IMG/VR virus record: IMGVR_UViG_3300032288_005778
Coordinates: 1-64,000 of that record
Reading direction: 5' to 3' (one strand)
Source of the DNA: a virus
DNA length: 64,000 nucleotides
Below the pieces are notes generated by a model that worked only from the letters and a program-made list of their open reading frames with translations, did not search any database and was not told the DNA's origin. A program made the translations under genes and the position numbers. Position 1 is the first letter of the stretch. Every line of letters begins with the position of its first letter. Of the stretch, positions 13,986 through 19,954 are shown in pieces.

Positions 13986-14461
13986 TCATCAGCCCAAATA
14001 AAATCAATACCAGCAGATAAGGCGCATTGCTGATCATCTCTGTTTACACCTACCATTAAAGCATGAGTTAGCGGTAGTGATGTATAATCCTCAATAAATT
14101 GGTGAATCATGCCAGGTGCGGGCTTGCGGTAATTACGCCCAAAAGGCAATTCTACCCAGGCAGTATCGCGGTGACACCTATAAGCTGTACTTCCATCAAA
14201 GGTTGTACAAAAGTTAACAGAACTCAAGCTGGGTAACAATTCCATTGTGTAGATTTGTTCCTGAATGCAAGATGATAATGTCTTTTTACGTCCTTGTATT
14301 CCCACTTGATTGGTAATTCCAGTAATATCCCAATCTGAGTATTTACTAATGATGTCTATGACACCTGGTATTAATTCCTGGTCTCGTGGATTGAGAATAA
14401 TACTACTTCCCGATTTGGATTGCCTAATGGCGTTTAGAGATAAAAACAATATCTTACTCAT
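13976..14461 (-). CDS. HAD-IIIA (GmhB/HisB-like) phosphatase homolog with degenerate catalytic motifs
   Basis: ITNQ.GI, RKPAPGMI and A..AGIDF are present; DxD reads SLN and GD reads GV. Confidence 0.75.
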   Translation of the reverse strand: MSKILFLSLNAIRQSKSGSSIILNPRDQELIPGVIDIISKYSDWDITGITNQVGIQGRKKTLSSCIQEQIYTMELLPSLSSVNFCTTFDGSTAYRCHRDTAWVELPFGRNYRKPAPGMIHQFIEDYTSLPLTHALMVGVNRDDQQCALSAGIDFIWADEWR

Positions 14462-14822
14462 CTTCTTTGGTTTTTGTGAAGTTTAATCTTTTTCGTCTGC
14501 TGACATTTTTGTAGTGACCAAAAGACTTCATCTGGATATCTTGTACTGATACTCCAAACTCAGCAGCCTTCTCTTGTTCGTGAGACTCAACTACTTGCTG
14601 TTCCTGTCTCCATAAAGTCGCTACTGCCATTTTGATTACGTCCGTTATGTCCATGCCATAGCACGCACCTATTCTTAGTACCTTGCGCTTTAACGCACTA
14701 GGGATTTTAGCGCGAATCTCTCTGGGTTCGTCGTTGATCACCTTTTTGCCGTTGATCAACCCCCGGTCAGGATGGGTGGCAATATCCTTTTCAATCTCTT
14801 CTCTTGTGCGCGGCTTAGTCAT
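14454..14822 (-). CDS. Ribbon-helix-helix regulator
   Basis: REIRAKIPSALKRKVLRIGACYGMDITDVIKMAV. Confidence 0.55.
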   Translation of the reverse strand: MTKPRTREEIEKDIATHPDRGLINGKKVINDEPREIRAKIPSALKRKVLRIGACYGMDITDVIKMAVATLWRQEQQVVESHEQEKAAEFGVSVQDIQMKSFGHYKNVSRRKRLNFTKTKEDE

Positions 14823-14953
14823 ATAGAACCTAAAACTATTATTTCCACTAATAGCACACTAATAGTGGAATATGCTATTTTTAAAATTAAAATCCCTCTA
14901 ATTGTTGAGAGCAATTAGAGGGATATGTCACCCCGCACAGGAGCTAACTAATT

Positions 14954-15199
14954 ATGGCACGAATGAAGCTAATTGAACCAGTTTTACCCCAAAAAGAGGC
15001 AAAAGCAGCCGGACTAAACCCCGGCGATCGCGGCTACCAAAAGTTTTGTATCAACTGGGTTGAGCAAAAAATATCTAAATATTATGAAGGAACTGGGCTA
15101 CAACCACCTGTAACCGCAACCGTCCAGAAATGGTTCTACGCCGACGAATTACCGGACTGGGTGGCTGTTTTCCTTCTGAATCTAGCTAAAAATAACTAA
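14954..15199 (+). CDS. Hypothetical (HTH-like) protein
   Basis: AGGAG RBS; VTATVQKWF. Confidence 0.6.
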   Translation: MARMKLIEPVLPQKEAKAAGLNPGDRGYQKFCINWVEQKISKYYEGTGLQPPVTATVQKWFYADELPDWVAVFLLNLAKNN

Positions 15200-15310
15200 T
15201 CCAAAGCCCCTTTAATTGTCAGCAAATGTGGGATTTCCCACATATCTATTGACGCTCTATTAGAGGGGTTTTATAGTAAGTACATACCGGACATAACCCG
15301 GACATGAAAG

Positions 15311-15601
15311 ATGAATCTACCAAAGATCAGCCGAAAACAGGCGGGAGCGACTTTAAGCGTAAGTCAAAGACAAGTACAGCGATATATCCGATTTGGGTAT
15401 CAATTTTTAGGGGTGTTTGAAAACTTTTTTAACACCCAATCAGAGGAACTAAATGGATTTCCTCTAACAGAAAAAGAACTTGCTGAACTGACTAAGATAC
15501 AGCAGTTAATACGTAAGTACAAAAACACAAAAAACAGTCACCAACAAATCAAAAAGGAGTTTGATAGTGGACAATGCACAAGTGATAATTTTAATCCGTA
15601 A
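15311..15601 (+). CDS. HTH DNA-binding protein
   Basis: SRKQAGATLSVSQRQVQRY. Confidence 0.65.
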   Translation: MNLPKISRKQAGATLSVSQRQVQRYIRFGYQFLGVFENFFNTQSEELNGFPLTEKELAELTKIQQLIRKYKNTKNSHQQIKKEFDSGQCTSDNFNP

Positions 15602-15702
15602 ACCAGAAGGAGGCGGCTATATAGAGTGGAAAGCAACCGCACCGTTAAGCATCTTTACAGCCAAGGCTAAAAAAGAAATTGAGCAAATATTAGGAGTCAC
15701 CA

Positions 15703-17556: not shown

Positions 17557-17652
17557 ATGTTAATCCCAGACATTACAGGCGTGGTTACAATACTATTAAT
17601 CGCATTGTTCTTAGGCATGATTTTGTACTTACAATATGACATGAGAAGGTAA
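17557..17652 (+). CDS. 31-aa single-TM peptide (not in the ORF track)
   Basis: MLIPDITGVVTILLIALFLGMILYLQYDMRR*, GAGG RBS. Confidence 0.5.
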   Translation: MLIPDITGVVTILLIALFLGMILYLQYDMRR

Positions 17653-17850
17653 GTGATGACAAAATATCAAGTTATTTTTCAAGGTGATTGGGAGACTCCC
17701 AGCCAAGAAGTATTGGAGCAACCCCTACCTTATGACGAAGCCATAAAAATGGCAGCATCACTACAAGCTGATATTTCTCTTGATGAGGATCTTTCAATCA
17801 AAGATATCTTTGAGTATCAAAGTTTTTTTTGTAGTGACTCCAATCTTTGA
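17653..17850 (+). CDS. Hypothetical acidic protein
   Basis: Fills the operon gap. Confidence 0.5.
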   Translation: MMTKYQVIFQGDWETPSQEVLEQPLPYDEAIKMAASLQADISLDEDLSIKDIFEYQSFFCSDSNL

Positions 17851-17860
17851 GGATTAACCA

Positions 17861-18148
17861 ATGGATAAAGAATTTTACGGGGGGTTACTGTTTTGTGGTT
17901 ACACAACCTTTCAGCTTTTGGGCTTTTTACTAAAAGCATTTCCCAGTACCACTGGAGGGGCGATCGCACTAATTGTTTTAGGATTATTACTAATAGTAAT
18001 TAGTGGGATTAATAACTGGCTGGGCTTGTATTACAAACATCACGGAATTGTCAACAAAACTCAAAACATAGTAGGTTTTGCACCTATTTACATATTAGGA
18101 AGTTTAGCTTTATTTGCAGTCATGGTAGGGATTTATGCAGCATCTTAA
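17861..18148 (+). CDS. 3-TM membrane protein
   Basis: Three hydrophobic segments, GAGG RBS. Confidence 0.7.
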   Translation: MDKEFYGGLLFCGYTTFQLLGFLLKAFPSTTGGAIALIVLGLLLIVISGINNWLGLYYKHHGIVNKTQNIVGFAPIYILGSLALFAVMVGIYAAS

Positions 18149-18207
18149 CAAAACCTTAAAACGACTAAAACCTTACATAACATTAGCACCCAACTTATCA
18201 AAACCTT

Positions 18208-19758
18208 ATGCAGATTCGTGAAACCCCTTTTACCAGGGATAGGGACAGCTTTCTCCCATTAATGATGACAGAACGATTATTGATGGGAACGCTGGCAATT
18301 ACAGCCATAGCAGGCACTTTTTCCCCTGTACTATTTTCCCATCAAAATAACTCGGTTAAGTTGGTTCAGCAAATATTTGGGCTATTCTCAGGTATTTGTT
18401 TTACTGGAGAATCTTGTCGCAGAAAGCAAAAAGAAAAATTCTACAACTCCATAGAACAGGCAAATTTAGCTATTGTCAACAATCAGCTTAAAGGGTCTTT
18501 TGCCTTTGAGCAGTGTCGAACTCAGATTGATTCTAATCGCGCATTAGCTTCTTATGTCAAGTTATTGCCAGAAATAGAGCGACCCCGGTGGACACAAGAA
18601 TTTGGGCTACATGGTTTAATTGAGTTGCCGCAGATACAGCAAGCAGTCCTTGAACAGCCTAAGCAGTTACCCGGTTCTCGTAGTATTCCTAACCCAGGGG
18701 TTGTCACCATTGATGAACAATCAGTGCAAGCAATTATCAATCCTAGCGTAAGACAACTACTGCAAGAATTAGCATCTCAGTATCCTGAATATGTGCGGAT
18801 AGACGATAAATGGATTGATGAATTATGCGAGAGTTCCGCTAGACAGAAGATGAGCGATCGCGCTAACCACCACTTTAGTTTTTGGGGTGAAACCCAGTCT
18901 GGTAAGTCAACATTAGCCGGTGTCATCATTAATGGAATCATTGCTTTATCTGGAAAACCATCTGTAGTGATTGGTTCAGATCCTAAGAATTTTTTAACAG
19001 CTTGGCTATGTAAATTTAGCCGTAAATTTGATGGTTTCAAAACCAGCTTAGATCAGTGGGTAACGTATGCCACGAGCGTTATAGACGCAAGACAGAACGA
19101 GTTCAAGAACAACCGCAGAGGTGAAGGACTTGGTGAAATATTCCTGGTTCAGGATGAAGTTAATGTTGTTTATGGTGAAGGGAAAGGACTAGTTGGACAA
19201 GTGCCGAAAGACACAGCAATGAACCTTTGCGCTATGTGGAATTATATTATTAATTTCACTGCAGCCATGAAAATTCACGGTATCTTCATGGGACAAAACC
19301 CATTAAGCACCTACACTGGTTTTAGTCGTCCTGCGCTTAAAAATATTTGCTTTTTGGCATTGGGAAAAGTGTCTAATTATGTACTTACTAAAATGCCAGA
19401 ATTGTTAAATGTCAAATCAGAAATATCTGATTTGTTTAGTCAAGTGTGTGAACTCTTAGACAAGGAACAGGTGAGATATGCCCTGGTAATTCCTACTCGC
19501 GGCAATCCTTTTGTAGCCTTAATTCCGGTATTTGATATTGATGCAATGGAACAGGTCAACGAACCCCAAGAAACCGCTCCTAAACAAGATGCAGTTAACT
19601 ATTACGAAATACTGATTGAGTGGATTAAAGAGTTAGAAAGATTCCCCACTAATGATGAACTAAAAGCAGCCTGGAAACAATTGACCGAGCAGGAATTAAA
19701 TGATAAAGGCGTTGAGTTACTAGCAGCCAAATTAAAAGAGGAATGGGAAGATGAGTAA
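18208..19758 (+). CDS. Membrane-anchored FtsK/HerA/VirD4-superfamily ATPase
   Basis: Two N-terminal TM helices, Walker A GETQSGKS, DPK, Walker B FLVQDE, HGIFMGQ sensor-like motif. Confidence 0.75.
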   Translation: MQIRETPFTRDRDSFLPLMMTERLLMGTLAITAIAGTFSPVLFSHQNNSVKLVQQIFGLFSGICFTGESCRRKQKEKFYNSIEQANLAIVNNQLKGSFAFEQCRTQIDSNRALASYVKLLPEIERPRWTQEFGLHGLIELPQIQQAVLEQPKQLPGSRSIPNPGVVTIDEQSVQAIINPSVRQLLQELASQYPEYVRIDDKWIDELCESSARQKMSDRANHHFSFWGETQSGKSTLAGVIINGIIALSGKPSVVIGSDPKNFLTAWLCKFSRKFDGFKTSLDQWVTYATSVIDARQNEFKNNRRGEGLGEIFLVQDEVNVVYGEGKGLVGQVPKDTAMNLCAMWNYIINFTAAMKIHGIFMGQNPLSTYTGFSRPALKNICFLALGKVSNYVLTKMPELLNVKSEISDLFSQVCELLDKEQVRYALVIPTRGNPFVALIPVFDIDAMEQVNEPQETAPKQDAVNYYEILIEWIKELERFPTNDELKAAWKQLTEQELNDKGVELLAAKLKEEWEDE

Positions 19759-19954
19759 GAAGCTAGAAGGTTTTGTCTTAGGGTCGGAACAGGGATTAAT
19801 CCATAAAGATACTGGACTTTATGACATTATTTTCACCGCTAAAATAAAGGAAGCAAGACTGTTTAATTCAAGGCACGAAGTTGATACTTTCAAAGCATTA
19901 AGAGGATTAGATTTGATGTCATTAACCTGTTATCAAATTCGTCAACAAACATAA
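19751..19954 (+). CDS. Hypothetical protein
   Basis: Overlaps the ATPase stop. Confidence 0.55.
   Translation: MSKKLEGFVLGSEQGLIHKDTGLYDIIFTAKIKEARLFNSRHEVDTFKALRGLDLMSLTCYQIRQQT

Follow-up and report, generated by a model that had tools for sequence, protein, structure and literature searches.

The 64,000-nucleotide stretch analysed here (positions 1 to 64,000 of the IMG/VR virus record IMGVR_UViG_3300032288_005778, called the window below) belongs to a tailed phage of filament-forming cyanobacteria and harbors, at positions 14454-19954, a packed plus-strand operon together with a divergent regulator gene (14454-14822, minus strand). The operon encodes a membrane-anchored P-loop ATPase which, judged by its modeled fold and by profile comparison, is a motor of the FtsK/TcpA class, and the accompanying genes constitute a module that is also found on plasmids. 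Whatever its role, this module represents a compact, deeply conserved backbone function common to large Nostoc plasmids and at least two cyanophage morphotypes. We tentatively favor, at a little less than an even chance, a membrane-embedded DNA-handling machine, most likely one that threads the DNA of its carrier element through or along the membrane. The open reading frames (ORFs), overlaps, and motifs agree with a first-pass annotation made from the sequence of the window, which had proposed a TraB-like system for spread along host filaments.

Modeled fold and relatives of the ATPase

18208..19758, plus strand: 516-amino-acid (aa) membrane-anchored FtsK/TcpA-class P-loop ATPase (motifs, AlphaFold2 (AF2) model, hhalign)

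The ATPase sequence, which includes FWGETQSGKSTLAG and EIFLVQDEVNV, combines the features by which the FtsK-HerA superfamily (additional strand catalytic E, ASCE) is recognized: a Walker A motif of the form GxxxxGK[ST] (GETQSGKST), a Walker B motif of the form hhhhDE (IFLVQDE), and a RecA-like core. Across 35 family members, no variation is seen at K233, D316, or E317. Kyte-Doolittle hydropathy scans, used for all transmembrane (TM) calls on window proteins, place a TM segment at residues 24-42, and two are called in homologues. An AF2 model built from 20 homologues (predicted local distance difference test, pLDDT, 70.8) has a TM hairpin (9-42/48-119) and a long stalk helix, then a disordered linker leading to the RecA-like motor (180-445), and three helices in the C-terminal domain; together, the invariant motifs and the hairpin bear out the 2-TM P-loop ATPase originally read from GETQSGKS and FLVQDE.

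A VIA structural search ranks TcpA of pCW3 first (Z 14.3, root-mean-square deviation 4.6, 240 aligned), followed by EccCb1 (13.3) and FtsK (13.1), with DndH, VirB4, and HerA within 12.9-13.3, and returns VirD4-type proteins at Z 10.1 (TrwB) and 9.9 (Cag-beta). TcpA is also the top Foldseek match (E 2e-4). TcpA has a two-TM anchor at its N-terminus and one FtsK-type motor that lacks the all-alpha domain of VirD4; its partners are VirB4-, VirB6-, and VirB8-like Tcp proteins and a relaxase. The ATPase model shares the two N-terminal TM segments and the single FtsK-like motor with this best structural match (C. perfringens pCW3, PDB 6o1w-6o1y). In contrast to the TcpA system, the small partners of the ATPase have no known family, and the complete search of the 82,388-base record, itself 83% complete, gave no match to VirB4 (PF03135) or to a MOB relaxase (PF03432, the one relaxase family searched). 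For these two families, the lack of relaxase and VirB genes first reported for the window extends to the record.

In a Pfam scan of the ATPase, DUF87 is the sole entry (E 0.0088); no model scores above threshold, and PF01580 is not matched. The profile of the 35-member family aligns with PF01580-bearing cyanobacterial proteins (hhalign 97.9%, E 5.8e-13, columns 211-368). By the Pfam rule, the ATPase sequence is that of a distant FtsK/SpoIIIE relative rather than of a member; by modeled fold and profile, it is an FtsK/TcpA-class motor, in keeping with the FtsK-like label that it had first received. The RecA-like beta-domain fold, the profile match, and membrane anchorage are shared with FtsK/SpoIIIE (PF01580), whereas the ATPase is much shorter, is encoded by phages and plasmids, and contains no recognized FtsK alpha or gamma domain. 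When searched against 1.84 billion representative proteins, the family profile gives 220 matches at E <= 0.001, which suggests a small self-contained family and not the fringe of the FtsK or TraG families. NCBIfam yields nothing useful for the ATPase, PADLOC-DB 2.0 only mad8 (E 0.0094, 13.5 bits), and PHROGs a sole match, to an unnamed family, on the ATPase C-terminus; its Atlas neighbours are FtsK/DUF87-flavoured only. In the PDB, neither the ATPase sequence by itself nor the family profiles of the ATPase, the HNH-like protein, and the 146-aa protein described below found a meaningful match, the identity between ATPase and TcpA being 11-16%.

Several other assignments were rejected. A role as packaging ATPase is at odds with the occurrence of the module on plasmids and in phage Lbo402-yong5, which has its own large terminase; in BFVD, A32-like packaging ATPases match weakly (E ~1e-6) compared with cyanophage kin (3.5e-17 and 3.9e-9). 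PADLOC gave no ATPase match better than E 0.009; a grouping with packaging or defence ATPases, which the first-pass annotation had named as refuting its proposal, is not indicated by these searches. A VirD4/TraG-type type IV coupling protein (T4CP) is excluded by the lack of a PF02534 match and by a motor of ~265 residues without the extra helical domain (all-alpha insert) of that family; plasmids carrying the module encode a separate PF02534 protein.

In the Anabaena/Nostoc myophages A-1(L) and YongM, the homologue bears the automatic name 'DNA translocase FTSK', given for YongM ORF73 in a table of PMC11356776, while the Lbo402-yong5 gene appears in GenBank as 'DNA translocase coupling protein'. 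The text available on A-1(L) and YongM describes no module, plasmid link, host restriction, or experiment on the gene. The accessible part of PMC6293099, on CL131, makes no mention of gp108, FtsK, or a translocase. The literature, supplements not covered, yielded no account of the module, of its sharing between plasmids and phages, of the nuclease link, or of the host restriction. The broad class of the ATPase is therefore already known from annotation, and the module as a whole is not described in the literature found.

Longer chromosomal proteins (~860-900 aa) matching the ATPase profile at E <= 1e-8 occur in 33 of 401 sampled cyanobacterial genomes; in the one scanned, FtsK_alpha and FtsK_SpoIIIE domains are joined to a PD-(D/E)XK nuclease at the N-terminus, another nuclease-FtsK pairing. 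A distant 455-aa family member in one sampled genome adjoins a Peptidase_M23 (peptidoglycan hydrolase) gene.

The module on phages and plasmids of filamentous cyanobacteria

ORFs were called, clustered, and positioned in 69 ATPase loci, namely the window, the phages CL131 and Lbo402-yong5, two PLSDB plasmids, and 64 of 65 genome loci, the one left out having an ATPase match of only 25 residues. Seven parts form the core of the module; besides the ATPase, these are an HTH_17-like gene, four small proteins (soluble, 180 aa; tail-anchored; helical, 146 aa; and 3-TM, 95 aa), and an HNH-like nuclease. Apart from the ATPase, they are represented in the window as follows.

13268..13759, minus strand: 163-aa candidate DNA-binding protein (blastp homologues near the ATPase in 27/69 loci, 26 besides the window; 18/27 viral loci)
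15703..16248, plus strand: 181-aa soluble protein, core module member, no TM (hhalign to the plasmid 170-aa family 87%, E 3.7e-6)
16326..16679, plus strand: 117-aa tail-anchored membrane protein, core member, C-terminal TM 76-94 (20/27 viral loci)
16636..17076, plus strand: 146-aa helical protein, best conserved of the ATPase partners (blastp homologues in 52/69 loci, upstream of the ATPase)
17861..18148, plus strand: 95-aa 2-3 TM protein (20/27 viral loci; abuts the ATPase gene in most loci)
21030..21371, plus strand: 113-aa HNH-like nuclease (blastp homologues in 48/69 loci, 47 besides the window)

The recurring order begins with a 150-aa HTH_17-like gene (a sub-threshold assignment), followed by genes for a ~170-200-aa soluble, a 1-TM, a ~110-aa tail-anchored, and the 146-aa helical protein; after a variable insert come the 95-aa 3-TM protein, whose gene ends at the ATPase start, the ATPase, and a Cys/His-rich protein overlapping the ATPase stop. 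In hhalign comparisons of phage with plasmid families, the soluble (87%), tail-anchored (86%; E 5.4e-6 against the plasmid 106-aa family), and 3-TM proteins (75.5%; E 2.4e-5 over 84 columns of the plasmid 95-aa family) are linked, as opposed to 0.1-0.4% for mismatched controls. The 67-aa 1-TM protein of the window shows no link to the plasmid 1-TM family (3.8%). Judged by these profiles, phage and plasmid modules are homologous gene by gene, the 1-TM pair excepted. The ATPases of A-1(L), N1, Dfl-JY23, and Lbo402-yong5 are full-length family members (profile hhalign 99.9-100%; 100% and E 1.4e-61 for A1L_45 of A-1(L)) and are preceded by the same run of small genes, A1L_50 of A-1(L) aligning with the 181-aa soluble protein at 69.9%. 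The window copy of the 95-aa protein has two TM segments, its homologues three. A plasmid member of the 163-aa family has a sub-threshold HTH_17 match (E 4.8e-5, 24 versus 27 bits). In 11 close IMG/VR relatives, ~770 nt separate the 3-TM gene from the start of the ATPase downstream, as against 347 nt in the window, which leaves room for an extra ORF.

The module occurs once per plasmid, co-resident copies being 94-96% identical. PLSDB holds 15 plasmids with the module, 14 from Nostoc and one from Halotia, in searches with a close and a distant query; MOB-suite types eight as conjugative and seven as non-mobilizable. Both plasmids that were checked, pNPUN02 and the Halotia plasmid, encode a PF02534 T4CP, 56 kb and 116 kb from the module, so the module is not their coupling protein. 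The pNPUN02 T4CP is clustered with VirB10, a MobV relaxase gene lies ~15 kb beyond it, and the plasmid also carries a ParM/StbA partition gene. Searches with PF03135 and PF12846 found no VirB4 on either plasmid, which may reflect a divergent cyanobacterial type. Positions 196000-232000 of this Nostoc punctiforme plasmid encode, in order, a 940-aa protein, VirB10, the T4CP, and a 1,370-aa DUF3854 protein, the MobV relaxase following ~10 kb past the last. DUF3854 is common to this protein and the 998-aa primase-helicase of the phage record, and DUF5895 is likewise shared (Halotia plasmid); these phages and plasmids therefore share more than the FtsK-like module.

A scan of GTDB species genomes, which was pattern-based and thus biased to close relatives, gave 65 loci, of which 63 are from Nostocales (Nostoc, Komarekiella, Cyanocohniella, Halotia, Chlorogloeopsis, and another Nostocales strain), the remaining two lying in an unclassified cyanobacterial metagenome-assembled genome and on a 2.3-kb contig binned as Acetobacteraceae. 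IMG/VR contributes 27 contigs with module relatives. Among 50,697 records of isolated phages, CL131 and Lbo402-yong5 are found at E <= 1e-3, and five more at an E limit of 5, four of which (A-1(L), Nostoc A1, N1, and Dfl-JY23) are phages of filamentous cyanobacteria; the fifth, an E. coli phage recT, was dismissed as a chance match. A Nodularia phage protein in BFVD (E 3.9e-9) is a further candidate. All named holders are filamentous cyanobacteria or their phages and plasmids, the phages of unicellular hosts among the 50,697 records not having been counted. In filamentous cyanobacteria, hetR serves as a marker gene, and its presence was used as a proxy for the filamentous habit in an even sample of 401 cyanobacterial genomes. 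Family-level matches occur in five of these (four motor-domain or full-length, one a C-terminal piece), and all five encode HetR, compared with 101 of the 401 overall (chance ~0.001, relatedness ignored). The restriction to elements of filamentous hosts, proposed as a check in the first-pass annotation, is therefore observed as far as these searches reach, with the reservations on phylogeny and rarity given below.

A link to DNA is indicated by the nuclease and other neighbours. The HNH-like gene overlaps or directly follows the ATPase gene on plasmids and lies 1.3 kb downstream in the window. Its product has the CxxC...HH...CxxCH...N motif (invariant C35, C38, H47, H48, C64, C67, H68, H73, and N77) and, in an AF2 model (pLDDT 83.2), a beta-beta-alpha fold, albeit with low Z scores: HNH nucleases make up nearly all of the top VIA matches (GVE2 HNH 5.9, McrA 5.4, Cascade-HNH 4.9, then Cap5 and IscB). 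No Pfam HNH model matches this protein. Furthermore, 32 of 94 close ATPase homologues are ~125 residues longer (632-646 aa), and in both of the two scanned the extra part gives sub-threshold PDDEXK_9 matches. HTH_17-like (sub-threshold) and winged-helix genes also lie within the block. These nuclease links and DNA-binding neighbours favor DNA over protein as the substrate. A predicted complex of ATPase residues 180-516 with the HNH-like protein reached a median ipSAE of 0.33 (0.37, 0.01, 0.33; best control 0.00), with 0% of contacts in common between runs and a partner pLDDT of at least 69, and was not counted as evidence: in the calibration, passes at or below 0.60 comprised 7 of 80 solved complexes and both of the mismatches that passed (2 of 110), and such passes are more often wrong than right.

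Possible roles of the operon

In the DNA-handling machine that we tentatively propose, the ATPase would form a ring tethered to the cytoplasmic membrane by its own TM hairpin and surrounded by the small membrane proteins (3-TM, tail-anchored, and 1-TM peptides), with two soluble helical proteins as further partners. Its substrate would be the double-stranded DNA of the carrier element, and the HNH-type nuclease (or, in relatives, the fused PD-(D/E)xK-like domain) and small DNA-binding proteins would work alongside the motor. Transcription of the operon would be coupled to the early/replication block and placed under a small repressor. Ring assembly, DNA as substrate, and the direction and destination of transport belong to this model, which builds on the gene content, fold class, conservation, and host range described above.

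The leading specific version of this proposal, in itself unlikely, is a septum-crossing spread along the filament, analogous but not homologous to the Streptomyces TraB/Spd system. As described in the available text of PMC4447253, which agrees with the first-pass account of TraB, Spd, and Kor, plasmids such as pSVH1 and pIJ101 encode a single FtsK-like motor with three to seven small, diverse, often membrane proteins, overlapping stops and starts, and a small repressor; TraB and Spd mediate plasmid spread through cross-walls independently of a type IV secretion system (T4SS). The cyanophage operon has the same layout, a small regulator, and a place on elements of a filamentous host. It differs from TraB/Spd in that homology of the partners is not shown, in its acidic C-terminal domain, and in the nuclease genes that accompany it. 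The divergent regulator, moreover, has no GntR match and is RHH-like (ribbon-helix-helix) at best, although control may be analogous, given a palindromic site. TraB carries a C-terminal winged helix that reads 8-bp direct repeats (clt) of its element. The C-terminal three-helix domain of the ATPase, seen within the full-length model only, has an isoelectric point of 4.34, and no clustered 8-mers are found. According to the part of PMC3548315 consulted, TraB proteins are reported only from Actinobacteria. Membership in the TraB family, as first suggested, is thus not supported by the C-terminal domain, the lack of clustered 8-bp repeats near the operon, or the regulator, which is not of the GntR type. 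Septum-crossing spread is the specific version of most interest because the module keeps to filamentous hosts across distant phage types and across plasmids that already have a T4SS. In its boldest form, which we consider improbable, a self-contained 'cut-and-pump' machine of FtsK-like ring, nuclease, and small septal membrane proteins, convergent with TraB/Spd, would pass double-stranded DNA genomes from cell to cell without virions or a T4SS.

Several observations weigh against a DNA-threading role or its septum-crossing version. TcpA, EccC, FtsK, DndH, VirB4, and HerA lie within 1.5 Z of one another, so that the fold comparison defines a class without singling out a subclass for the ATPase. 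Its C-terminal domain, being acidic (pI 4.34), is not an obvious DNA reader, and no 8-mer is found four or more times inside any 400-bp stretch of the operon or its flanks, as would be seen for clt-like clusters. The HNH fold match is weak (Z 5.9), and two genes separate the ATPase from the HNH-like gene in the window. The family is rare, present in 5 of 101 hetR-bearing genomes, and filamentous life hence does not require the module; the host restriction is also confounded by phylogeny, as the holders are mostly Nostocales with Leptolyngbya as the sole second lineage. CL131 is virulent in the laboratory, and virion-free spread would be a new behaviour for it. Finally, in the text available for YongM (PMC11356776), the homologue is listed as a 'possible essential gene', on bioinformatic grounds only.

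Among the alternatives, an exclusion or defence role has a low probability: a membrane motor and nuclease would intercept entering foreign DNA and protect the resident phage or plasmid. Motor and nuclease at the membrane fit this idea, as do DndH, SIR2-HerA, and DUF4297-HerA among the fold matches (Z 11-13), an AIPR gene near the module in 19 loci, and the frequent presence of such genes on phages and plasmids. However, no PADLOC family is matched beyond E 0.009, the block sits among replication and nucleotide-metabolism genes, and the module is a stable syntenic backbone, one per plasmid and kept across sipho- and myovirus lineages, unlike patchy defence islands. This one-per-replicon conservation speaks for a function that serves the DNA of the element itself rather than for defence. 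Such a function could also be segregation or anchoring, a rather unlikely alternative in which the motor, in the manner of FtsK/SpoIIIE, would hold or pump element DNA at closing septa or into akinetes or hormogonia, with no transfer between living cells. It would draw on the FtsK-class motor and on the single copy per replicon within a replication gene region, and it has a precedent in Bacillus phages, whose conserved FtsK/SpoIIIE genes are, in the accessible portion of PMC8597652, tied to carrying genomes into spores. Lytic phages with short cycles would gain little from it, however, and pNPUN02 already has its ParM/StbA partition gene; the nuclease association would be left unexplained. Leptolyngbya is not known to form akinetes.

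Secretion of the 146-aa helical protein or another small partner by a machine of the type VII (EssC/EccC) kind appears doubtful. Among the fold matches, EccC/EssC ATPase domains rank second (Z 13.3, 12.9), and small helical and small membrane proteins beside a 2-TM FtsK-like ATPase resemble that system; in contrast to it, the ATPase has one P-loop domain where EssC/EccC has three and lacks an FHA domain, no W-x-G motif stands among the columns conserved in the 146-aa family, and nuclease and DNA-binding genes travel with the module. An alternative T4CP that delivers DNA of the phage or plasmid to a T4SS encoded by the host or a plasmid is highly improbable, even though TcpA, a coupling protein with the same 2-TM and motor layout, is the top fold match, the GenBank annotators of Lbo402-yong5 chose the name 'DNA translocase coupling protein', and 8 of 15 plasmids are typed conjugative. 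The two plasmids checked own a PF02534 T4CP 56-116 kb away, in pNPUN02 within a T4SS-like cluster, 7 of the 15 plasmids are typed non-mobilizable, the phage record lacks detectable PF03135 and PF03432 genes, and the module has retained membrane proteins of its own.

Should the threaded DNA indeed pass from cell to cell, cyanobacteria would have their first conjugation-like or virion-free spreading system, and FtsK-type DNA transfer its first case beyond Actinobacteria and Firmicutes. Such passage would offer a lytic phage a new way to take a whole multicellular host from one adsorption and would change infection models of bloom-forming filaments (Aphanizomenon, Dolichospermum, Nodularia, Nostoc). 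The module lends itself to direct tests, since the genetic model Anabaena/Nostoc PCC 7120 is a host of A-1(L) and N-1.

Remaining operon genes, candidate control elements, and the phage record

14454..14822, minus strand: 122-aa divergent gene, candidate RHH-type regulator (RelB/DinJ TIGR02384, E 0.022, sub-threshold)
14892..14924, no strand: perfect 13-bp inverted repeat with 7-nt spacer in the divergent intergenic region, operator-like (repeat search)
14954..15199, plus strand: 81-aa first operon gene, no family (ORF; homologues in 15/27 viral loci)
15311..15601, plus strand: 96-aa protein (homologues in 16/27 viral loci; no significant family match)
16214..16417, plus strand: 67-aa single-TM protein (TM 9-27), overlapping both neighbours in another frame (19/27 viral loci, CL131)
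17073..17555, plus strand: 160-aa polytopic membrane protein, 3-4 TM (three in the hydropathy scan; 71% identity to CL131 gp110; 18/27 viral loci)
17557..17652, plus strand: 31-aa single-TM micro-protein (tblastn, 56-100% identity in 19/27 viral loci and CL131, where it is unannotated)
17653..17850, plus strand: 65-aa ORF, variable insertion, doubtful gene (homologue in 1/27 viral loci)
19751..19954, plus strand: 67-aa protein overlapping the ATPase stop codon (11/27 viral loci; weak match to CL131 gp107, 33%, E 7e-7)
20114..20911, plus strand: 265-aa protein with winged-helix DNA-binding matches (Pfam TBPIP, FUR, HTH_20, HTH_12, E 6e-7 to 3.5e-5)

Neighbouring operon genes abut or share bases at their junctions (overlaps of 4 nt at 17073, 8 nt at 19751, and 44 nt at 16636), and genes 16214-16417 and 16326-16679 overlap by 92 nt in different frames, an overlap that is kept in CL131. 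The whole operon is kept in 18-20 of the 27 IMG/VR contigs at 30-100% identity, which argues against a chance arrangement. Its small membrane proteins indeed number five, as first counted, if the unlisted 31-aa ORF 17557-17652 is added to the four ORFs with scanned TM segments. The 160-aa polytopic protein is confined to the phage lineage and has no plasmid counterpart. For the 81-aa protein, Pfam, PHROG, and NCBIfam searches gave no match; the helix-turn-helix initially assigned to 15311-15601 could not be substantiated by any significant family match. The 146-aa protein has no PDB or Atlas lead, and its weak Cas1-like PADLOC matches (E 3e-4) look like coiled-coil noise. The 265-aa protein is found in 11 of the 27 viral loci. 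Contigs of relatives from two RNA libraries join 17654/5 to 17860/1 and thereby skip ORF 17653-17850.

A divergent gene is present as originally described, its RHH label resting on the sub-threshold RelB/DinJ match; the product is 54% identical to CL131 gp119 and is found in 18 of 27 viral loci. The inverted repeat at 14892-14924 also scored as terminator-like on the minus strand, and an extra half-site is located at 15259-15273. Judged from the sequence, this operator-like palindrome and the small divergent regulator probably control expression of the operon. Contigs from RNA libraries (metatranscriptomes) of four studies match relatives of 13.7-22.5 kb at 90-97% identity, including pieces of 1.3-2.0 kb across 15.3-17.3 kb and parts of the ATPase gene; they are a hint of expression rather than proof of transcription, DNA carry-over being possible, and uncovered parts are uninformative.

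The IMG/VR record that contains the window (CheckV completeness 83%) encodes a tail protein J-like (phrog_31, E 4e-94), and its remaining 18 kb contain a Mu-type portal and a 4,582-aa ORF within a tail-gene region. The operon is surrounded by replication and nucleotide-metabolism genes; those of the record include DnaB, DnaN, a replication initiator, thymidylate kinase, dCTP deaminase, two C5 methylases, and a 998-aa DUF3854/D5_N/DUF5906 primase-helicase. No tRNA genes were found in the window. The closest isolated relative is Aphanizomenon phage vB_AphaS-CL131, with 63% identity between the ATPases and a syntenic region; it behaves as virulent in culture according to the text available from PMC6293099. 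The label 'phage-plasmid', used in the first-pass annotation, is not supported in view of this virulence and of the lack of integrase and ParA/CbiA genes in the whole 82,388-base record.

Three groups of repeats were noted elsewhere in the window. A ~37-nt unit is present in at least four copies with a spacing of 69-89 nt at 26193-26530, directly adjoining gene 26511-28274 (minus strand) for a 587-aa OrfB_IS605/Cas12f1-like TnpB protein; it looks like a small phage-borne CRISPR-like array or TnpB-associated repeats. Iteron-like direct repeats of 15 nt at 49039-49178, inside the replication-initiator gene 48786-49847 (phrog_4707), probably mark the phage origin, as judged by their sequence and position. 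Tandem repeats of 39 nt at 20-240 lie near the 5' end of the 998-aa primase-helicase gene, where a weak HetE-N match is also found.

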